From positions 17,968 through 81,967 of IMG/VR virus record IMGVR_UViG_3300026292_000602: a stretch of 64,000 nucleotides of DNA; one strand, 5' to 3'. The position numbers and the translations under genes are program-made. Shown here piece after piece: positions 6,137-42,978 of the stretch. How positions within the stretch are numbered: the first letter of the stretch is position 1; every line of letters starts with the position of its first letter. The stretch comes from a virus. Under the pieces are notes generated by a model. The model was not told the origin of the DNA and ran no database searches. It worked only from the letters and a program-made list of their open reading frames with translations.

Positions 6137-6186
6137 TGTTATACCTCATTACCTAATAGTATATAACAAAAAAACTAAAATGTCAA

Positions 6187-6528
6187 TTAAAGATTGGCGT
6201 TGGTTGCTCGTTTCGCCATTTGGTCTACTTGGTCGGGAGCATTACTTTGGACTGGTGCATCAGCATCAGCTTCTTTTTTAGTAGAAAGGCTAACACCTTT
6301 TTCATCAAAGTTCTTTACTAGATTTGCTAATTCTGGATTGGCATCATATATTTGTTTGAATCCATCATAGTCAAACTGTTGCATATCCATATTTTGCATT
6401 AATTGGTTAAGTGCTTCGAATGAAAGATAGGCAGGCTGATCTTGAGAATCAGCACTACCTATAGTGTTTCTAAAAATTTGAACGAGTGCGTCTTTGGAAT
6501 TTGTTGCCTCAGTTACTTTACTGAAGTC
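6187..6528 (-). CDS. -1 frame extension (113 aa) of the 6513-7388 protein, probably reached by programmed frameshift
   Basis: The frame is open from the GAC after A-AAA-AAG (6528) through DFSKVTEATNSKDALVQIFRN... into the listed 6187-6399 ORF. There is no ATG/GTG/TTG in the first 43 codons. Confidence 0.7.
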   Translation of the reverse strand, partial: DFSKVTEATNSKDALVQIFRNTIGSADSQDQPAYLSFEALNQLMQNMDMQQFDYDGFKQIYDANPELANLVKNFDEKGVSLSTKKEADADAPVQSNAPDQVDQMAKRATNANL

Positions 6529-7388
6529 TTTTTTTTTGAAGTTTCGTTAGTCTTTTTTTTTGAGTCAGTAAGCATTTGGCCTAAGCGTCTGCTTCTTTGT
6601 ACAGATTCACGTTTTTCTCTATCTGCAACTTCTTCACCGCCTGTTGCTGGTTCACTTGCTCCGAATTCATCTGCTACTGGTTCTTGTTCAGCACCTGCGT
6701 CCGCATCAACTGTTGGTTCCATATCTGCAACTGGATCCTCTGCAGGAGCCTCAGGGTCTGTTCCCATAGTTGCCGGAGCGCCTTCGCCTGTTACGATAGC
6801 TACGCCACCTGTCATTGCTTCTCTTGTAGTTTCAAAAACTGTATATAGATTTTCTAATGCTGGTTTTACAGTATTAATGAATTCTTCGCTCTTTTCAGAA
6901 CCAAGTTCGTCTCTGATCTTATCGCCTAATTCTAGCATTGATTCAGTTTGCATTTCTGCTGTGTCTTCCATCCAGCCTGTAATTCTGTCAACCATGTCTT
7001 TAGCCGCCATAACCAAAGTAGCTTCTTCTTCAGCACCTTCTTTTACTTCTTCTTTAGCTTCTTTGTCTTTGATTGCTTTTTTCATTGGTTCTTTTTTGTC
7101 GCCATCTTTGTCAGCGTCAATAAAGTCTGGTTTTGCTTTTGATCTTTCTGCAATTTCTTGATTAATAACGTCTAGGAACATTCTGCCTTTTTGGTAAGCA
7201 TCGCTAGTATGTACAGTATCAAAACTTTCATTAGTTTCAACTGCTGATAGCTGTGTACGTAATCTATTACGTGCATCTTCTAGCTGTTCATTAGTAAAAT
7301 CATCTAAACGTAACTTTGTTCCGAATGTTTTTGCTAGTGACTCATTTAAGTCTTTAGCTGATACAATTTTAAGTTCTGTTATTTTCAT
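6513..7388 (-). CDS. Acidic coiled-coil head-assembly/scaffold-like protein
   Basis: MKITEL...NE leader, Glu/Asp-rich helical sequence, DADKDGDKKE motif, late TAAATA promoter. Function is inferred. Confidence 0.55.
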   Translation of the reverse strand: MKITELKIVSAKDLNESLAKTFGTKLRLDDFTNEQLEDARNRLRTQLSAVETNESFDTVHTSDAYQKGRMFLDVINQEIAERSKAKPDFIDADKDGDKKEPMKKAIKDKEAKEEVKEGAEEEATLVMAAKDMVDRITGWMEDTAEMQTESMLELGDKIRDELGSEKSEEFINTVKPALENLYTVFETTREAMTGGVAIVTGEGAPATMGTDPEAPAEDPVADMEPTVDADAGAEQEPVADEFGASEPATGGEEVADREKRESVQRSRRLGQMLTDSKKKTNETSKKKTSVK

Positions 7389-7422
7389 ATCTCTTGTTCC
7401 TAACTGTTATAGTTATTTATCA

Positions 7423-7866
7423 TCAATCGTCGAATACATACTCGTCTAATTGGCAAATATAATCCCAAGTATGGTCTTTAGCTAGTTCAAACCGCATTTC
7501 CGCGGCTTCTCTACGGAATTCATCGTCTGTAGACTCTATAGTATGCTTATGGAAAATACTGTCCATATAGTGTTTACCCAGGTTTTGATCCAATCTAAGC
7601 ACCTCTACTTCTAGATTTGGGTTATTTCTAGCTCTTGCTTTAGAGTATGCTATTGCTCCACGTTTACTAAAGGTTGTAGCAATTCTTTTATGTGTCTTAA
7701 CATCAAATAGTATGAACCCACCTTCTTTTTTGGATTCTCTAAATATCGTATTCTTTATGCGTACTGACTTACCTTTACCTTTTACGTATGGCATATGAAC
7801 TCTCTTGAGTCCACTTTCCATTATGTCGTCTAAGTCTGCTTTAAGTTTAGTCGGGTTCATTAGCAA
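7423..7866 (-). CDS. Hypothetical phage protein
   Basis: 147-aa ORF in the late operon. Confidence 0.7.
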   Translation of the reverse strand: MLMNPTKLKADLDDIMESGLKRVHMPYVKGKGKSVRIKNTIFRESKKEGGFILFDVKTHKRIATTFSKRGAIAYSKARARNNPNLEVEVLRLDQNLGKHYMDSIFHKHTIESTDDEFRREAAEMRFELAKDHTWDYICQLDEYVFDD

Positions 7867-8053
7867 CTACCACAATCATTCCATTACGATTAACTTTAGT
7901 TATTAGAGCTTTTCTAATAAGTCCTTCGATAACGAATTGTTCTCTTTCAGGGAAACTGTTCATTGGTAACGGATTTTGTACTTTTGCTAGTACTTCTTTT
8001 TCTTCGTTACTTGTTTGAACGGTGAATTCTCCAACTAGATCATTTATTTTCAT
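7847..8053 (-). CDS. Small hypothetical protein with MKINDL...E leader
   Basis: Translationally coupled ORF (TAATG overlap). Confidence 0.7.
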   Translation of the reverse strand: MKINDLVGEFTVQTSNEEKEVLAKVQNPLPMNSFPEREQFVIEGLIRKALITKVNRNGMIVVVANEPD

Positions 8054-8508
8054 TAGACTACCTTACCTGCCATTGGATTAGTTCCTACGGCTTGGTCTGC
8101 TTTCTTTTTGACTATTGAATCTAGTTCTTTTCTATTATATACAAATGCTTGAGGCTCTCCTGGTTTGGCCTCTGGATTTTTCAATGTTACTTGATCTCCT
8201 TTAACATCATCTATATCGAATTCAGTTTCTTTTCCCCCTTGAGTGGGTATTGCTATTTGTTTACCTTTTTTAAGTATAGCTTGTGAAACTTTGCTTTGTG
8301 CTTGTTTTACGGCTTTCACTGCCTTTGCGCCTATGCCTTTTGCGGCGTTGGCACCGATCTTACCTAATTGAGCTCCCATCTTAACGCCAGCTTTTGCCGC
8401 CGCTGATCCCATCTTCGCACCAACACGGCCAGCAACGGCTCCTATTGCAGGTACTACTTCAACAATCTCTTGTTCTTTGATAGGTGATGTAAATTCTTTA
8501 GCTCTCAT
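8053..8508 (-). CDS. Ala/Lys/Gly-rich probable virion internal protein
   Basis: MRAKEF...IVE leader followed by an amphipathic A/G/K-rich segment. Confidence 0.6.
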   Translation of the reverse strand: MRAKEFTSPIKEQEIVEVVPAIGAVAGRVGAKMGSAAAKAGVKMGAQLGKIGANAAKGIGAKAVKAVKQAQSKVSQAILKKGKQIAIPTQGGKETEFDIDDVKGDQVTLKNPEAKPGEPQAFVYNRKELDSIVKKKADQAVGTNPMAGKVV

Positions 8509-8870
8509 TATTTTCTTCTCGGTATTTTTCTTCCAGTTCTAAATTTCTTTCTTCTTGTTGGAGCTCTTTTATATTTCTTCTGTGTCTGTGGCTTGTTAGC
8601 TTTTGTAAGTCGTTTAGTTAATGCTCCTGCTCTTTTAATACGTGCAGTCTTAACTTTCATTACACTAGCCTTACGTGCCTTAGCTCTCTTTATATTTATA
8701 GCACTTCCAACTCTCTTCTGTGCGTTACAGGTTGACGGTTGTGCTACAATTCTGCCCTTACGTGATCCACTTGTACATCTGTACTTACGAACCATTTTAC
8801 CTTTATTTCTTCCCCAGATTTGAATAACACCTTCTTTGATAGATTCAGTCATAATCTCGTTGATCTTCAT
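8508..8870 (-). CDS. Very basic (K/R-rich) small protein, paralog 1
   Basis: MKINEIMTE..E leader then QIWGRNKGKMVRKYRCTSGSRKGRIV...C. Confidence 0.75.
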   Translation of the reverse strand: MKINEIMTESIKEGVIQIWGRNKGKMVRKYRCTSGSRKGRIVAQPSTCNAQKRVGSAINIKRAKARKASVMKVKTARIKRAGALTKRLTKANKPQTQKKYKRAPTRRKKFRTGRKIPRRK

Positions 8871-9154
8871 TATCTTCTTCCGGCTTTATTCAATGCTTGT
8901 ACTCTACGTGAAGCTGGGTTAGTACGTTTTGTACGTCTAGCCTTCCTCATCATACGAGCACCTATTCTGGCTCTAGTTCTTTTTAATGTTAGTCGTGCCT
9001 TCATATTAGGAGCCGCAAAGCATTGTGACATCTGTTTAACAATACGTCCTTTACGTCTACCTACAGTACAACGGTACTTACGAACGACCTTTTTACCAGA
9101 TCGAGCCCAGATTTGTTTTTCATCTATTGGTTCGTATATCTCACGTACTAGCAT
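8870..9154 (-). CDS. Very basic (K/R-rich) small protein, paralog 2
   Basis: MLVREIYE..DE leader then QIWARSGKKVVRKYRCTVGRRKGRIV...C. Confidence 0.75.
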   Translation of the reverse strand: MLVREIYEPIDEKQIWARSGKKVVRKYRCTVGRRKGRIVKQMSQCFAAPNMKARLTLKRTRARIGARMMRKARRTKRTNPASRRVQALNKAGRR

Positions 9155-9213
9155 ATACGTATTTATGTTTGTTTTGGGTGTTTGTTTTGTTTTAGGAAGG
9201 GTGGTAAATTATA

Positions 9214-9447
9214 TTACATATTCATTAGTACGACTACTAAAGTTGAAAGTAGTCCAGCTATAATAGTGCCTGTTGCACCTATTATAACTTTTACCATTGA
9301 TTTATTTCCGTTTGTAATATCGGCGTGGATATGCTCTACTTTAGTCTCTATTTTAGAGAGACGAAGTTCTAAATTATTATATCTTTGTTCGCACAAATCA
9401 ACGTGTGCTTCTAAGTTTTCTCGTTCTAAAGTTGTGGCTCTTGCCAT
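9214..9447 (-). CDS. Coiled-coil protein with C-terminal TM helix (XhlA/holin-like)
   Basis: Heptad N-terminus LEAHVDLCEQRY...LSKIETKVE and hydrophobic C-terminus. Confidence 0.5.
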   Translation of the reverse strand: MARATTLERENLEAHVDLCEQRYNNLELRLSKIETKVEHIHADITNGNKSMVKVIIGATGTIIAGLLSTLVVVLMNM

Positions 9448-9554
9448 CTTACACTCTCCATTCCGTTAATTATCGTGGAAGGGGCCTATATTCTAATCGC
9501 CTAAAATAGATGTAATGTTTGCCTTGTGCCTTTGTATTAATATTTATTTAATAC

Positions 9555-10001
9555 CTACGTTTTGTTATCTACTAACTTAAAAATGATATTTCTTGTTGCA
9601 TCATCTTTAGTTCTAAACGCATTATTATTTATCGTAATAGACTCGGTAAGACCAGCAATTACTGGTACTAAATCAAAGTCATCTTTAAGAGCTTCTACAC
9701 TTAAAGCACCTATTTGTTCAATAGTAAATGTGAAATACCACAGTCTTTGTTTACCTGTATATTCACTGCCAAACTCGCCATTAGTAATATCAACGTCTTC
9801 AACACATTTTGGTGAAGCGTCAAAGTATGGGTTTGCTCTCAGGCCTACAACTTGTAAGAAAGTGTTCCAATTTGCTTGTTGGTTGATAGCTTTCCTATCT
9901 TCACTTCTAAATTTGGTTTGTCCTGTTTGAGTTATATCTATTAATGTAGCAATCTCAAAGTTCATACTCATACTTATAGTCATAAAAAAAGGGCGGAACA
10001 A
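9555..10001 (-). CDS. Hypothetical phage protein (true start probably near 9965-9971)
   Basis: TLIDITQTG...NQQANWNTFLQVVGLRANP; the first codons of the listed ORF overlap a terminator. Confidence 0.65.
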   Translation of the reverse strand: MFRPFFMTISMSMNFEIATLIDITQTGQTKFRSEDRKAINQQANWNTFLQVVGLRANPYFDASPKCVEDVDITNGEFGSEYTGKQRLWYFTFTIEQIGALSVEALKDDFDLVPVIAGLTESITINNNAFRTKDDATRNIIFKLVDNKT

Positions 10002-10020
10002 ATAATGAACCGCCCTTTAG
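9984..10020 (-). terminator. Rho-independent terminator
   Basis: Minus strand AAAGGGCGG-loop-CCGCCCTTTTTTT after the 10063-10425 gene. Confidence 0.8.
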
Positions 10021-10062
10021 TGTATTTGTTAACTTAATTAACGTTTACTAATTAACTATGGA

Positions 10063-10425
10063 TTACGCCGCAGTTAAAGTAGTAGCCGCAACTACGTCTG
10101 AACCAGTAACGTCGATGTTGTTTGGTCCTACAGTAGTTCCTAAGTGTCTAACAGCCGCTTGTAAAGAAGCCGCGTCCCACTGAGATGAATCAACTAACAA
10201 TGTAGCCGTTCCAGCATTAGAGTCAGTTACTGACATTCCTAATGTGTTACAAGCCATTGCGATTGCTTCAACTGTTTCGTTAGCCGCGTCGTCTTCAGCT
10301 CTGATATCTTGTGCAGAGTTAGATGCGTTTTGTACTGTTAGTAAGAAAGCGCCGATGTTAGCACTTGTTCTGTATGATCCAACAACGTAGTTGCCGAATC
10401 CGTTTACTCTTGTTATTCCAGCCAT
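10063..10425 (-). CDS. Probable abundant virion structural (head decoration-like) protein
   Basis: A/T/S/V-rich, Lys-free, MAGITRVNG start, strong AGGAG, late promoter and its own terminator. Confidence 0.5.
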   Translation of the reverse strand: MAGITRVNGFGNYVVGSYRTSANIGAFLLTVQNASNSAQDIRAEDDAANETVEAIAMACNTLGMSVTDSNAGTATLLVDSSQWDAASLQAAVRHLGTTVGPNNIDVTGSDVVAATTLTAA

Positions 10426-10512
10426 TTTATTTCTCCTATTTTCTAATGACCAACATACTTTTCTCTTGTATGATGTTACTAGTATTTATAAGATTTGGTA
10501 ATAAAGTGTGGA

Positions 10513-11379
10513 TTAACGTCTTTTTTTAGCTCGATTTTCTAGGGATCGTAGCATTTGAACGTATCCTGGCCCTGCTTTTACTATATTATCTATTATTAGT
10601 ATTGCAGGTAGGTATTGTTTAACAAATGTACTTGGAATACTTTTGCCGTCTTTTGCAAGTTCTAAAAACTTTTTAGTACCTACTAAATTCCTTGCACCAA
10701 CTAAAAATCTATACATAGATAGTTCTTGTCCTGTTACTCCTATGTCTGGACTTGATACTGTTGGCTCGTTGTCTTTAACTGTTGCTGTTTCTAAATCTCT
10801 TTCAGCAACAAGTTCTTCTAGGTAGATAATTATATCACTACTTCTAAGTTTGGCTCTAGTAGCAAGTGCTAATCTAGTTGCTACTTTTTTCTTTTCCATT
10901 GTTGATAGTCTATCAAAGTTGCCTAGGTATCTACGAGTGGCTTTATAGTCTGCATTGGAGATATTTAATGCAGTTTCTATACTCATAAATGTTTCACTAG
11001 GTCTAGATACCATTCCACTTGATAGTGTTGTTAAGTATCTATTGATATTCATTTTTGGTAGTGTAGTTCTACGTGCTATCATTCTAGCACTATCAGGATC
11101 TTTAAGTTTTAGTAGAGCTTCATCATCTCCATTTACAAAGTAAATGAAGTTATGTAAGTCAGTACCATGCATTTGAAAACGTGCATAATTTGTATCTTTA
11201 GTTTTCTTTGCATAAGCTCTCGCATATGGTACATACTTTGGATATTTGCTCAGAAGCTCAAGAACTAATAAAGACAAGTATAGTCTTTCACAGCAATCGT
11301 TATAGGTTAACTTTGCTGTATCCCCCGAGTTACGGGTCATTCTAGCTTCGTATAGCTCTGATAAGAACTCCAGTTCCAC
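10513..11379 (-). CDS. Hypothetical probable virion protein
   Basis: MELEFLSELYE|ARM leader; lies in the late block. Confidence 0.6.
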   Translation of the reverse strand: MELEFLSELYEARMTRNSGDTAKLTYNDCCERLYLSLLVLELLSKYPKYVPYARAYAKKTKDTNYARFQMHGTDLHNFIYFVNGDDEALLKLKDPDSARMIARRTTLPKMNINRYLTTLSSGMVSRPSETFMSIETALNISNADYKATRRYLGNFDRLSTMEKKKVATRLALATRAKLRSSDIIIYLEELVAERDLETATVKDNEPTVSSPDIGVTGQELSMYRFLVGARNLVGTKKFLELAKDGKSIPSTFVKQYLPAILIIDNIVKAGPGYVQMLRSLENRAKKRR

Positions 11380-11390
11380 TTAACTACTCC

Positions 11391-11849
11391 TTATACAAGT
11401 TTAGCTTGATATTGTCCTTCATATGAGCTTTTTGGTTGCTCTTTAGGACTATACATATCAAAGAACTTTGCTTTCATGTCTTCAGGTGTTTTTGCACCTA
11501 ATAAAGCACCTAGTACTTCTTTCTTTTTGTTTACATCATCTGTAAACTTTCTTTTCTGGTCTTGATTATAGTTCGAAGTTAACATAGCCGCGATCATTTT
11601 AGCCTGCCAACCAGTTATTGGAAACTTACCACCGTCTTCAGTTGAAACACTTTTAACTGGGTTAGGATTTCCTTGTGAGTCTATCACTTTGTGAACTTGG
11701 TTAATCATCGATACGTGCTTATCACTATATCCTTTATCTAAATCCCCATCATCTTTATCAGCAGGATCTATTTGTTTCTTTAAAGAATCAATAGCATCTT
11801 GATCTAAGTCATCAGCTTTGATCTCTTTAATAAAATCAGTTGCTTTCAT
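11391..11849 (-). CDS. Hypothetical probable virion protein
   Basis: MKATDFIKE leader. Confidence 0.6.
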   Translation of the reverse strand: MKATDFIKEIKADDLDQDAIDSLKKQIDPADKDDGDLDKGYSDKHVSMINQVHKVIDSQGNPNPVKSVSTEDGGKFPITGWQAKMIAAMLTSNYNQDQKRKFTDDVNKKKEVLGALLGAKTPEDMKAKFFDMYSPKEQPKSSYEGQYQAKLV

Positions 11850-11858
11850 TTTTATCTC

Positions 11859-12983
11859 CTATCGTTGTACTGCTCTGTTAGCCGCACTAAAGCCAGCACG
11901 ATTAACAAATTTAATATCACCATCTGGGTGAGCCAGTACATAGCCTTCCCCACCTGGTTTACTTCCTATTGATGCTTTAACATCAGCAGGTTGATTTTCT
12001 AGTTGAGCAATAATATTATTTTTAGTTTTCATTATACCTTCAACTACTTGCCATAGAGCACCAAAGGCTCTTATGTTCGTTTTAACATACTCAGTCATCT
12101 TAGCTTTCTTCGGAGCCGAAACTGCCGAGTTCTGTAACCATTGCATAAAGTCTTTGCCTAAGTTGTCTAATCCTGTATCTGTTTTACTATTTACATATTG
12201 ATATAAAACATTTGAGAAGTCTGTCATCTTCATACTTCTTAATTGTTCTTTGTTAAGTAATGAATCTATTGCACTTGCATTCTTTGTAACGATTGCACTA
12301 ATTTTGTTTATGCCACTCATATCTACTTGTGGTGGCTCTTGTACAGTGACTGGCGGTAAAACTAATAATTGTTTACCTTGGAATATATCATAATCGGTTA
12401 AAGGTTTTTCACTACCATCTGGGTCAACTATTCTATGAATCACAACCCCAGCTTTACTTACTTGAATACGTTTTCCTATGTCACTGTCGGCTACAACTGT
12501 ATAGGAAACTATATTTGGTTTAAAGGTATATGCTCCGTTACTTAAATCAGGTGTGTTAAAAAATAATAAGTCGCCTTTGAAGTAGCCTCTAAAGTCTTCT
12601 GGTATTGCCTTTTCAAACACAGGAAACACAGATTTCATATTACCTGCAAATGCTTTGTAATCATCTGACTTCTCAGATCCTTTTCCTCTGTTTAATAATA
12701 ATGCTTCTAAGTCATCTCCATTAGTTGCACGGCCATCATAACCTTTTGCAACAAAACCTGACTTGTCTGTAAATACAAATCTTCCTTCATCGTCTCTTCC
12801 AAATATAACTGCTGGAGAGCCGTCCCATTTAACTGTAAGTGATTGTGTGTTACCTTTTGTTAATCCAATGATTGAATCAATAACACGTTTTGCACCTGCA
12901 CTACCTTCCCAAAAGATAACGTCTTCGGCGTGTTGTATACGAGCATCTTCAAATACTGCTTTTCTAAATTCGTATAATCTCAT
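11859..12983 (-). CDS. RNA-ligase-superfamily covalent nucleotidyltransferase (DUF6267-like)
   Basis: TVKWDG (motif I KxDG), FKGDLLF (III), GEGYVL (IV), DIKFV (V); MRLYEF...FE leader. Confidence 0.6.
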   Translation of the reverse strand: MRLYEFRKAVFEDARIQHAEDVIFWEGSAGAKRVIDSIIGLTKGNTQSLTVKWDGSPAVIFGRDDEGRFVFTDKSGFVAKGYDGRATNGDDLEALLLNRGKGSEKSDDYKAFAGNMKSVFPVFEKAIPEDFRGYFKGDLLFFNTPDLSNGAYTFKPNIVSYTVVADSDIGKRIQVSKAGVVIHRIVDPDGSEKPLTDYDIFQGKQLLVLPPVTVQEPPQVDMSGINKISAIVTKNASAIDSLLNKEQLRSMKMTDFSNVLYQYVNSKTDTGLDNLGKDFMQWLQNSAVSAPKKAKMTEYVKTNIRAFGALWQVVEGIMKTKNNIIAQLENQPADVKASIGSKPGGEGYVLAHPDGDIKFVNRAGFSAANRAVQR

Positions 12984-17918: not shown

Positions 17919-18881
17919 TTAATGAAGTCCGTTTGGAACTATTATATAATGTATTGCTAAAACTATTCCTACTGAAGCACCTAAGCCAATCATCATCTTA
18001 AAGAAGTCTTTTGCAATAAAAGGAAACACACCTTTGAACTTTGTTTTGTCTGTAAATGTAGCAATAGCAAGTTCACGTCCTGTTAACAATCCTACAAAGA
18101 CCCAAGTAGTTGACATAGGTATATCGTTAATCTCTTTAAAGAATAAAAGTATTACAAAGTAAAACAAGTCTATAAGACAAGCACTTCTAACATATCTTGT
18201 ATTGTGTTTCTCTATGACTATCTGTTGTATCTTACCGCCACGTTCTCTAAACATATAACCTAGCCCTAGTACAAATATTAATGATACCATTATCATCATA
18301 TCTATAGGAACTTGTCTAGGTAGGTAAACTGCTATGTTGGCCATGTCATGACTTAACCAAGTCCACCACAATACTCCTGTGGTAATCCATTGTCCTACTC
18401 GCCAATATGCTTTATGACTTTCTTTAACTGAAGCAGACTCGTCCATCACTTTAGTAATACCGTACCATATAGCATAAGCTGATACACCTGCTACTGCATA
18501 ACCCATCATGCTTTTCATAAGCATCTTCTCTAATACAAATGTACTAGCGAAAGCACTTAATACTAAAAATGATGTACTTACTGGAACGCCTAGTCTTGTT
18601 AATATTAATAGTAGTCCTGGAGCGGCCGCATGATACCATTGTACTTCCTGCCACGGTATCCTGTTCAGTCGTCCATATGAAATATCCCCTCCATTAGTAT
18701 ACCAACCATACCATAGAGCCCATAGCAGGACAGCACTTGCGGCTCCCCACATGATTTTCCAGTCATATCGTTCATTGTTGGATGCAATCCACGTACCTAG
18801 GGTTTGTACGGAATCGTTTGCGATGACGGAGTAGGCCGCGAATAAAAAGCCTATGGCCATCCATAGTGTTAATACTTCCAC
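17919..18881 (-). CDS. PiT-like (phosphate/sulfate permease) membrane transporter
   Basis: About 9 TM helices with internally repeated IANDSVQ/SHDMANI and PVSTS/PMSTT motifs resembling PHO4/PiT signatures. Confidence 0.6.
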   Translation of the reverse strand: MEVLTLWMAIGFLFAAYSVIANDSVQTLGTWIASNNERYDWKIMWGAASAVLLWALWYGWYTNGGDISYGRLNRIPWQEVQWYHAAAPGLLLILTRLGVPVSTSFLVLSAFASTFVLEKMLMKSMMGYAVAGVSAYAIWYGITKVMDESASVKESHKAYWRVGQWITTGVLWWTWLSHDMANIAVYLPRQVPIDMMIMVSLIFVLGLGYMFRERGGKIQQIVIEKHNTRYVRSACLIDLFYFVILLFFKEINDIPMSTTWVFVGLLTGRELAIATFTDKTKFKGVFPFIAKDFFKMMIGLGASVGIVLAIHYIIVPNGLH

Positions 18882-28147: not shown

Positions 28148-28729
28148 CTAAATGTATTTAGAAAATGTTTGTCTACTGCACAGTTCAAGAGCTTTTAAGT
28201 ATTGCTCTTCTTCATTAAAGTCAAACACACTATGGTTACTAGGCTGTGCAAACAACCAAGCACCTTGTCGTATTTCATTAGCTAATTGGTCTTCAGTCCA
28301 TACACTCATACCAGCAAACATTCTCCAACCCTTAGGAGTGTTACCAGTTGATAGTTTTTCTATCATAAGCATATCACTTGTCATAGCTAATTCATTGCCG
28401 CTCTTTAATGTGTTAGTACTTTGCCATTCATTCGTATGTAACAACAGAACTGATGTATCATTAACAGGTCCGCCTTTGTGAACAAATGTTTCTTCCAATG
28501 CAGGATCAAAAGGTATATCTTTAAGAAGTCCTAGACTTGAACATCTAAACTGACTTGGCTTATTTAAAATGACTCCCATGACTTCGCCGCCGTCTACTCT
28601 ATGCTCGTAGATATAAACTACAGAACGAGCAAACACGGGACTACTGTTTAGTACAGGGCCAGCAATTAATAACTGCCCACTATATTTCGTATTCACGTTT
28701 CTAACTCCAGTCTGGTAATGGTCCGCCAT
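28148..28729 (-). CDS. YqgE/AlgH (DUF179) family protein
   Basis: GQLLIA...FARSVVYI.EH...GVILNKP...GGPV...FAGMSVW..QL..EI..GAW. Confidence 0.85.
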   Translation of the reverse strand: MADHYQTGVRNVNTKYSGQLLIAGPVLNSSPVFARSVVYIYEHRVDGGEVMGVILNKPSQFRCSSLGLLKDIPFDPALEETFVHKGGPVNDTSVLLLHTNEWQSTNTLKSGNELAMTSDMLMIEKLSTGNTPKGWRMFAGMSVWTEDQLANEIRQGAWLFAQPSNHSVFDFNEEEQYLKALELCSRQTFSKYI

Positions 28730-28940
28730 ACTTTTTGCCTTTTATTTTCTTTCCGCCTACCGTTACACGTTTCTTGCCAACCTTATGGCTTTTACTTCCT
28801 GATCGTGTTCGTAGACCTTGCGACTTACAAGAAGCTAAATTCGATGCACCTAATGAACTATCAGGTCTAGAAGACCTACATAGTTTCTTCGATGCTTGAG
28901 CTTCGAGCTCTGCCTTAGTGTCTAAATCAACTATTTTCAT
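28701..28940 (-). CDS. Small basic probable virion protein
   Basis: MKIVDL...ELE leader followed by a K/S/G-rich body; late promoter upstream. Confidence 0.6.
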   Translation of the reverse strand: MKIVDLDTKAELEAQASKKLCRSSRPDSSLGASNLASCKSQGLRTRSGSKSHKVGKKRVTVGGKKIKGKKYGGPLPDWS

Positions 28941-42159: not shown

Positions 42160-42621
42160 GGTACCTTATATTATGGCATCATTATTGATAAAAGTCAAGG
42201 AGGAGGTTTACCAAAAATTCTCTATATTTTTCAAGAGGTTAGGACCCTGAGCCTCAGGTCAGAGTTCGGCCCACCCTTTGAGTATCGAAGTTTTTCTGTC
42301 CTGGTTTGTCTTAACCTTACCCTTTTTTTGGTGGGCGGATCTCTTGCTCCGGCTTATACTATTATAATATGATCTCTTGGGGGATTTGTCAACCATTTTC
42401 TTTGTTTTGGCCCCATCTTTTTTTGGCACTAGATCTAGTGGGTGGGGGAGGTATAAACCACAAGCGGAAATCAGCCCATCGGGAGCGTGGCAGTCTTTAT
42501 TATAGCATATTTTGGATTGGATGTCAACCAAAAAAAAATGGTATTTTTTGGAAAAAAGAGGTTGACCTTTTGGATTAGAGACTGTATTATAATATTAACA
42601 ATAAGGAAATAGGAGGGCTAC

Positions 42622-42978
42622 ATGGCTAGAGAAATTACTTTAAAACCTAATATACAAATAAGTCTCGATGGGACTAGCATTTGGGATAGAGCAGGGACCA
42701 ACCCTGAGACCGTAAATGTCAGCAGTATTACATTGAGGGAAGAGACCTACGATGATGATAGCTGGTGGGACATGGTTATAGAACACGATGGTCCCTGGGA
42801 GATCTATACTGATAAGGGATTCGTTAAGGGGATCTCGGATTTAGTAGGTCCCGGTTGGGATGTTGACTTTAGTGAGCAAGGTCTACAAGAGGATGGTAGA
42901 GCTCATTTTGACGTGCATTCTACACCCGATGAGATCACGCATGAGGTTAAAGAATCGCTAGAAATGGAAGGAAATTAG
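42622..42978 (+). CDS. Early hypothetical acidic protein
   Basis: IYTD.GF...FSEQGLQ motif; own promoter. Confidence 0.7.
   Translation: MAREITLKPNIQISLDGTSIWDRAGTNPETVNVSSITLREETYDDDSWWDMVIEHDGPWEIYTDKGFVKGISDLVGPGWDVDFSEQGLQEDGRAHFDVHSTPDEITHEVKESLEMEGN

Follow-up and report, generated by a model that had tools for sequence, protein, structure and literature searches.

A conserved run of adenines as a probable programmed frame switch at the end of a virion-associated gene in uncultured marine giant phages

In phages T7 and T3 (10A/10B), Lactobacillus phage A2 and Listeria phages A118, A500 and PSA, a frameshift at the end of a structural gene yields a minor, C-terminally extended form of the protein; the shift is -1 in T3/T7, A2, A118 and A500. 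The proteins extended in these phages are coat or tail proteins, and the added domains are often Ig-like and exposed on the virion exterior. Related arrangements occur elsewhere: in lambda gpG/gpGT, a -1 shift near the end of a short open reading frame (ORF) leads into a start-less frame and is conserved across very divergent phages, while E. coli dnaX relies on an in-phase A_AAA_AAG heptamer and tRNA-Lys to obtain two products, gamma and tau, from one gene in a set ratio. Here we describe an element that shares features with each of these systems, at the 3' end of a gene for a 291-amino-acid (aa) protein in a 64,000-nucleotide stretch of the IMG/VR virus record IMGVR_UViG_3300026292_000602 (positions 17,968 to 81,967; hereafter the window). 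A run of nine adenines (A9) at this gene's end very probably acts as a conserved programmed frame switch, whichever machine slips, and would join the 291-aa protein to a downstream frame that has no start codon of its own.

The likeness to each precedent is partial. The lambda cassette differs in gene family, slippery sequence and genome position, the present gene not lying between tail tube and tape measure. E. coli dnaX, from an unrelated gene family, carries a Shine-Dalgarno-like element 10 nucleotides (nt) upstream and a stem-loop 6 nt downstream of a site with six adenines, whereas the marine phage cassette has nine adenines and no universal stimulator was found for it. The dnaX genes of some bacteria come closer, in that a zero-frame stop follows the site directly and the long form is the shifted one, as here (PMC5009743); dnaX also provides the precedent that homologous genes can use either of two slippage mechanisms, ribosomal or transcriptional. 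Transcriptional slippage in Thermus thermophilus dnaX and in the Roseiflexus IS630 cassette likewise involves a homopolymer of nine, and one clade of the phages studied here has a hairpin abutting the run on its 5' side; unlike those systems, the hairpin is missing from the window and from many clades, and variants with only six adenines exist. Compared with the T7/T3-type extensions, the carrier protein looks internal and bears a leader, and the added domain is winged-helix-like with a stand-alone alternative. Neither literature searches nor phage records turned up an account of the gene family or of its frameshift.

On the minus strand, the main ORF closes with TCA AAA AAA AAG ACT AAC GAA ACT TCA AAA AAA AAG ACT TCA GTA AAG TAA. 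The sequence TCAAAAAAAAAGACT is present twice, with a spacing of 24 nt, and in the whole 82-kb contig the 12-mer TCAAAAAAAAAG occurs only at 6552-6563 (site 1) and 6528-6539 (site 2). At both sites A_AAA_AAA and A_AAA_AAG lie in phase with the zero frame. A -1 shift at site 1 leads to GAC TAA and a predicted product of 280 aa. After a -1 shift at site 2 the frame stays open down to a stop at 6187-6189 and adds 113 residues, for a predicted trans-frame product of 400 aa beside the 291-aa zero-frame product. No ATG, GTG or TTG occurs in the first 43 codons of this extension frame, before the ATG at 6399, and no Shine-Dalgarno sequence stands ahead of that ATG. A preliminary description of the locus had reported two identical slippery copies 24 nt apart, an immediate stop after a shift at the upstream copy, and a frame beyond the downstream copy that lacks a start for 43 codons and reaches the ORF at 6187-6399; the sequence agrees on all three points. 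The features of the locus are as follows.

6513-7388, minus strand: main ORF, 291 aa, zero-frame product (ORF translation; PHROG match; alignment A2 of 52 homologs).
6552-6563, minus strand: site 1, TCA AAA AAA AAG, codons 276-279; among close relatives found only in the window and contig L001.
6547-6549, minus strand: TAA in the -1 frame, terminating after a shift at site 1 (sequence).
6528-6539, minus strand: site 2, TCA AAA AAA AAG, codons 284-287, the putatively productive run, a homolog of the one run that relatives conserve.
6513-6515, minus strand: zero-frame stop TAA, four codons past site 2 (sequence).
6190-6531, minus strand: extension in the -1 frame, with 114 codons if the slip Lys is taken as the first (alignment, codon-position test, structure model).
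Within 6190-6531, minus strand: parts of the extension, namely a winged-helix-like domain followed by a linker and, at the C-terminus, the motif V..MA..A (alignment A1; AlphaFold2 (AF2) model).
6187-6399, minus strand: 'orphan' 70-aa ORF called from the extension frame's first internal ATG; the domain's first helix and strand are missing from it.
6507-6526, minus strand: small hairpin CTTCAGT / ACTGAGG, 1 nt past site 2, enclosing the zero-frame stop (RNAfold).
7341-7388, minus strand: N-terminal leader MKITEL...LNE, in which L14, N15 and E16 are invariant in A2.

Site 2 is strongly conserved among relatives. Two scans of IMG/VR and one with the extension peptide gave 168 loci with 122 distinct junctions, all from marine phage contigs; the protein identities range from 35 to 100%, and the contigs derive from numerous independent samples. 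In 117 of the 122, an A run stands at the very end of the main ORF and a homologous extension of about 100-130 codons follows in the -1 frame. The run is A9 in 99 of the 117, A10 in 11, A8 in two and A6 in five. Phase, stops and runs were counted over 119 run-bearing sequences. The base after the run falls at codon position 3 in 101 of these, giving an AAG codon and a zero-frame A_AAA_AAG, to which the A9 runs add an in-phase A_AAA_AAA; the zero-frame stop lies no more than one codon from the slippery codon in 96. An AGG triplet 6-24 nt upstream of the run recurs in 82 of the 119, but it is part of conserved Leu-Gly codons.

The run is also set apart from the remainder of the genes that carry it. 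In the rest of these 119 genes KKK occurs 79 times, nearly always coded with an interrupting AAG and all-adenine in only five instances, which are the five second A9 runs discussed below. Apart from the junction run, the genes contain 44 runs of A7 and a single A8, and A9 is confined to those five second runs. This pattern of codon choice points to selection on the nucleotides at the junction, beyond any need for Lys-Lys-Lys.

Not only the run but also the frame behind it bears the marks of use. We compared 137 sequence pairs of 75-97% nucleotide identity over the part of the extension upstream of the window's first ATG. Differences at codon positions 1, 2 and 3 numbered 805, 441 and 1491, and codons with a single difference comprised 964 synonymous and 434 non-synonymous cases; the same pattern holds in the extension downstream of the ATG. 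Judged by these substitutions, the start-less frame evolves as translated coding sequence would, with purifying selection acting before the first ATG. The claim that site 2 is a programmed -1 switch joining the 291-aa protein to a start-less frame thus gains support both from the conserved run and frame relation and from purifying selection ahead of any start.

In alignment A1 (61 sequences) the extension is conserved from the first residues after the run, with a consensus K-V-x-E followed by L..VLR..., and the four columns of the C-terminal V..MA..A motif are invariant. With A1 as input, AF2 gave a core of predicted local distance difference test (pLDDT) 85-90 over residues 11-80, with H-E-H-H-E-E topology; in the predicted domain, helix 1 and strand 1 consist of the first 35 residues of the extension, which are coded upstream of the ATG. 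The top Foldseek/VIA structure matches are nearly all winged-helix (WH) but weak (E 0.08 or worse; Z 6.3 or lower), and include ESCRT-II, kleisin, SelB, cullin WHB, Cdt1 and MCM. The modeled domain thus bears a weak resemblance to winged-helix domains; as it is acidic, we do not propose DNA binding.

Sequence databases hold the extension mainly in truncated form. A profile search of 1.84 billion representatives of 50% identity clusters returned 623 matches, and among the best 150, gene calls of 65-100 aa with varied internal starts predominate. Because these downstream calls begin at so many places, the extension has no conserved start, and scattered, truncated gene calls are the expected outcome of an unannotated frameshift. 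The 70-aa 'orphan' ORF of the window is in this sense a gene-calling artefact. An Atlas search found only unnamed viral clusters of the 70-aa truncated form, labeled 'hypothetical protein', while the extension had no tblastn match in 50,697 phage records, PHROGs held no match for the extension, and Pfam returned nothing significant for either the main protein or the extension.

The preliminary description had asked that the A9 lengths be confirmed in reads. Both A9 runs are present in an independent IMG/VR contig (L001) and in an independent contig assembled from a DNA run (X14 record 1, which covers 6150-7104 with no gap). An RNA-library contig (X16 record 17, 6487-6660, no gap) also reads A9/A9, although contigs conceal minor run-length variants and this reading is a weak test of RNA heterogeneity. 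The A9 lengths are not an assembly error. Two further RNA-library contigs, X15 and X17, from different studies, stop exactly at the edges of the A runs, at 6529 and 6553, and RNA-library contigs span the main gene while none lies over 6150-6486; such gaps and ends could result from internal priming by oligo-dT, from a homopolymer-induced branch in the graph or from a filter, and we draw no conclusion from them. The 64-kb window contains three A/T runs of nine, two of which are sites 1 and 2. The third, at 42530-42538, is intergenic and was for that position rejected as a second cassette; it lies just upstream of a promoter-like TTGACC/TATAAT pair (region 42530-42600, plus strand), which is followed by an AGGAG ribosome-binding site for the ORF at 42622-42978.

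Two explanations would dispense with slippage altogether. A homopolymer sequencing error that splits one ORF, or a recent frameshifted pseudogene, would be in keeping with three singleton database proteins that read as one ORF (P0109, P0151 and P0152). These are in-frame fusions known as protein records, and their junctions, SKKK followed by VNE.. or by GLTE.., equal the predicted trans-frame junction. Yet the frame relation and run length recur in 117 distinct sequences from many independent assemblies, and independent DNA and RNA-library contigs agree on A9 plus A9; the breadth of identity and the number of independent samples exclude error or recent decay for practical purposes, and we assign such an origin a negligible probability. 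Alternatively, the domain might be made by internal initiation, at the ATG at 6399 or at a non-canonical start, the A run being a mere accident of coding Lys-Lys-Lys. Some relatives lend this idea substance. In L083, L085 and L087 there is no A run, and the domain is a separate gene with its own ATG and a MKIFEL or MKISDI leader; in L116 the run is cut to A6 (TCA AAA AAG AAA TAG) and is followed by AGGA, 6 nt and an ATG in the -1 frame, such that L116 may be an intermediate between the frameshift and separate-gene forms; and databases list the 70-aa ORF as a hypothetical protein. However, in the window the first 43 codons contain no start and no Shine-Dalgarno sequence precedes the ATG at 6399; purifying selection acts on the start-less part, which belongs to the fold, and all-adenine KKK coding is confined to the junction. 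Moreover, true stand-alone homologs all bear an M-[KR]-[ILF]-x-[ED] leader, which the window is without: 37 of the best 150 extension matches are stand-alone or N-terminal forms that start M-[KR]-[ILF]-x-[ED]-hydrophobic, among them proteins of 261, 463 and 771 aa. We therefore regard internal initiation as highly improbable. Homologs with their own start and no slippery site, which the preliminary description had listed as telling against a frameshift, do exist, in 3 of the 122 junctions, but we read them as an alternative architecture rather than a refutation.

With a frame switch at site 2 as the preferred reading, there remains the matter of which machine slips. The sequences show the site, its phase and conservation, the coding character of the start-less frame and the reality of both A9 runs; from these we infer the occurrence of the shift, its rate and the slipping machine. 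Most expression would end at the zero-frame stop and give the 291-aa acidic, helical, virion-associated protein, while a fraction would shift to -1 at the site 2 A9 and yield a form of about 400 aa that carries the conserved winged-helix-like domain of about 110 aa and the V..MA..A motif. The likeliest mechanism, to which we give roughly an even chance, is mainly ribosomal: tRNA-Lys would slip -1 on the in-phase A_AAA_AAA/A_AAA_AAG heptamers on the ribosome, and a zero-frame stop at or next to the slippery codon would help slippage in most relatives. The five A6 sequences fit such a mechanism, as they keep the exact in-phase A_AAA_AAG and have downstream folds that are stabler than same-gene controls (mean percentile 0.06). 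Several observations nonetheless weigh against it. A universal downstream stimulatory structure was sought among the relatives and not found; the 45-60 nt downstream are only modestly stabler than controls (mean -7.7 vs -5.7 kcal/mol), and these folds vary by lineage, ranking high only in the A6 and A11 variants. In the window, the 60 nt downstream of site 2 fold at -8.7 kcal/mol (z about -1.2, RNAfold), and the hairpin at 6507-6526 is weak and too near the site for a canonical stimulator. No tRNA-Lys genes are encoded in the 64-kb window. The run is held at nine although the heptamer needs only six adenines, and in two relatives, L162 and L164, the domain lies in the +1 frame behind an A11 run. 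Finally, one clade (20 sequences, alignment A3) has an 8-bp hairpin that ends 1 nt before the A9 run. (In L162 and L164 a 6-bp hairpin stops 2 nt short of the run, and the downstream fold is stable.)

The competing possibility is that, when the entire 9-bp hybrid of the host RNA polymerase rests on A9/T9, the enzyme adds one A to some of the transcripts, and that the resulting A10 mRNAs are translated normally to the fusion, with a nascent-RNA hairpin directly 5' of the run promoting slippage in some clades. Nine adenines is the length of efficient slippage by bacterial RNA polymerase in vivo and is used by Thermus dnaX, and a hairpin that abuts the run on its 5' side promotes transcriptional rather than ribosomal slippage in the Roseiflexus IS630 cassette (PMC5009743). 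In accord with this literature on nine A/T and hairpin-dependent slippage, the run is fixed at nine (99/122) or ten (11/122), well past the needs of the heptamer, and runs of A8 or longer are sharply avoided elsewhere in these genes; a one-base deletion would also serve the A11/+1 variants. The hairpin of the A3 clade has 92.5% paired cells and compensatory double changes in five of eight pairs, with 0 of 500 shuffles reaching its covariation score; the clade comprises L002, L004, L011, L012, L017, L029, L035, L038, L039, L041, L043 and others, and includes the window's closest relatives. Its compensatory changes cross amino-acid replacements (Q/L, T/A). More generally, the 26 nt upstream of the run have folds modestly stabler than those of controls, at -3.7 against -2.0 kcal/mol (Wilcoxon p 5e-7, the sequences not being independent). 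Against polymerase slippage, a 5' hairpin is absent upstream of either site in the window, whose lineage has lost it, and from many clades; slippage on the A6 of five sequences, which keep the heptamer and a stable downstream fold, is expected to be negligible; the proximity of the zero-frame stop would play no part; and the sole RNA-library contig over both runs is A9/A9, which counts for little where contigs hide minor variants. We consider polymerase slippage a credible mechanism, though one that falls short of an even chance, and leave a small share of probability for both machines acting comparably or for something else; on present sequence evidence, ribosomal and RNA polymerase slippage are indistinguishable.

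The frame switch proposed for site 2 has been distinguished here from the upstream copy, for which the preliminary description had suggested a two-stage device in which a truncating site precedes the productive one. Compared with its sisters L002 and L011-L013 (81-89% identity, single run), the window has 24 extra nt, which sit between the ancestral 5' context (ACTGACTC plus A9) and the ancestral 3' context (CAGTAAAGTAACTGAGG) and are shared only with the near-identical L001. By this comparison, site 1 is a lineage-specific 24-nt insertion and not a conserved device. A second A9 is found in 5 of the 119 sequences (window, L001, L062, L075 and L088), 15-48 nt upstream of the productive run and always followed by a -1 stop within two to three codons; in L062, L075 and L088 it lies 38-48 nt upstream, in a different insertion. 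All five lack the adjacent upstream hairpin. No instance of the twin-site pattern emerged from a scan of metagenome contigs that allowed the run lengths to vary, in a set that may exclude near-identical records.

It could be argued that the twin sites are a selected device that sets the ratio of 280-, 291- and 400-aa products. Both runs are real and the genotype occurs in many marine data sets; A9 is otherwise excluded from these genes, yet a second A9 arises in five of 119, each time with a nearby -1 stop; and none of the lineages with a second A9 has the adjacent upstream hairpin. But the twin run is not conserved, since sisters at 81-89% identity have one run, the two groups carry the second run at different places, and its origin is explained by the 24-nt insertion between ancestral contexts. 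Selection against A9 at this place would in any case be relaxed, as the 'truncated' product of a site 1 shift, ...SKKKD-stop, is practically the usual short form of relatives, ...SKKK-stop. The simplest reading is that an extra A9 near the C-terminus is tolerated because the shifted product is harmless; site 1 would then modestly drain the flux that reaches site 2. We hence consider a selected two-stage device unlikely, and the suggestion of two-stage tuning is not upheld: the upstream site, limited among close relatives to the window and L001, looks tolerated rather than designed.

The protein that carries the switch is probably associated with the virion. It matches PHROG 14154, 'virion structural protein' (E 1.2e-8), and is acidic, with 66 D+E against 43 K+R. 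AF2 models long helices at 119-200, a disordered acidic stretch at 204-256 and a short C-terminal helix before the Lys tail. Structural neighbors in BFVD are uncharacterized proteins of uncultured phages, Atu_ph07 and RaK2, and tblastn of the main protein against the 50,697 phage records gave a sole match, to a hypothetical protein of Sinorhizobium phage Phosso. A blastn match to Prochlorococcus phage P-TIM68 was set aside, as it covers only an 83-nt D-x-D-K-D-G-D-K-K-E-P-M-K-K motif. This motif (DxDxDG, calcium-loop-like) lies at residues 85-113 of the main protein (window 7051-7133, minus strand) and again at 11391-11849 (minus strand); it is common at the nucleotide level to a P-TIM68 hypothetical protein, is found also in PHROG 24078, and among homologs is present or absent as an indel. 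Profile rows from the PDB that would suggest a calmodulin/EF-hand identity are weak (E 0.04-0.6) and are not relied on.

At its N-terminus, the main protein bears the leader MKITEL...LNE, which resembles the T4 capsid-targeting sequence (CTS), a leader that a gp21-like protease cleaves after the Glu of (L/I)xE. By this analogy, we take the leader of the main protein, with its terminal (L/I)xE motif, for a candidate capsid-targeting sequence or propeptide. The main gene's start is common to a set of seven neighboring genes, with the form M-[KR]-x-x-[ED]-hydrophobic. Counted by the pattern M-[KR/L]-x-x-[ED]-[ILF], eight genes have such T4-leader-like starts (MKITEL, MKINDL, MRAKEF, MKINEI, MLVREI, MKATDF, MRLYEF and MKIVDL), in the window at 6513-12983 (minus strand), plus 28701-28940 (minus strand). 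Among the leader genes is a pair of very basic paralogs, 8508-8870 (41 K+R) and 8870-9154 (31 K+R), which have V-R-K-Y-R-C-T..G.RKGRIV in common.

The genome around this gene is known in part. The source contig in IMG/VR measures 81,967 bp and is 23% complete by CheckV, which implies a full genome of roughly 350 kb, and the sequencing runs that bear the stretch are marine or seawater metagenomes. At 42-52% identity, the jumbo phages PA5oct, Atu_ph07, Phosso and SCTP-2 have the helicases closest to the DnaB-like one of the window; the carrier is an uncultured marine giant phage of a clade related to PA5oct, Atu_ph07 and SCTP-2. A 330-kb, 93%-complete contig, G001, carries both a relative of the main gene and a T4-type prohead protease (PF03420, E 1.3e-26), the two genes being about 110 kb apart. 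In the window's own 82-kb fragment no head gene is in view, the gp21-like protease (PF03420) not having been searched for there. The preliminary label of a 'head/scaffold-like' protein thus holds only in part: the PHROG virion structural match, the helical acidic model and the T4-CTS-like leader speak for it, while the distance of about 110 kb from the protease gene in G001 suggests that the main protein is probably not the major scaffold.

What the extended form may do can be approached by analogy. In retroviral Gag-Pol and in T4 CTS-guided cargo, a minority fusion to a core protein or an N-terminal leader brings cargo into the particle; a similar arrangement is conceivable here, and a T4-type prohead protease, as in the T4 CTS system, occurs in the clade (G001). 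Tentatively, the fusion might be a Gag-Pol-like means of loading the winged-helix-like domain into the prohead on a leader-bearing core protein, with the K-V-x-E at the junction as a prohead-protease site where the domain would be released; stand-alone genes, whose M-K-I-x-E leader would target the capsid, and the rare in-frame fusions would be interchangeable solutions to the same end. We hold this proposal to be possible, if rather doubtful.

The family in question is an abundant one (623 clusters at 50% identity), but it is annotated as an ordinary gene plus a truncated 'hypothetical protein' of 65-100 aa, and by this annotation a real long product would be missed in marine phage catalogues. 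The relatives form a large natural series: the run may be A6, A8, A9, A10 or A11, single or double, the 5' hairpin and the adjacent stop may each be present or absent, and the domain may stand alone or be fused. Such a series could tell ribosomal slippage from slippage by the polymerase and trace the gain and loss of these sites. Taken as a whole, the frame switch points to a conserved minor form of a virion-associated protein in an uncultured jumbo-phage clade.

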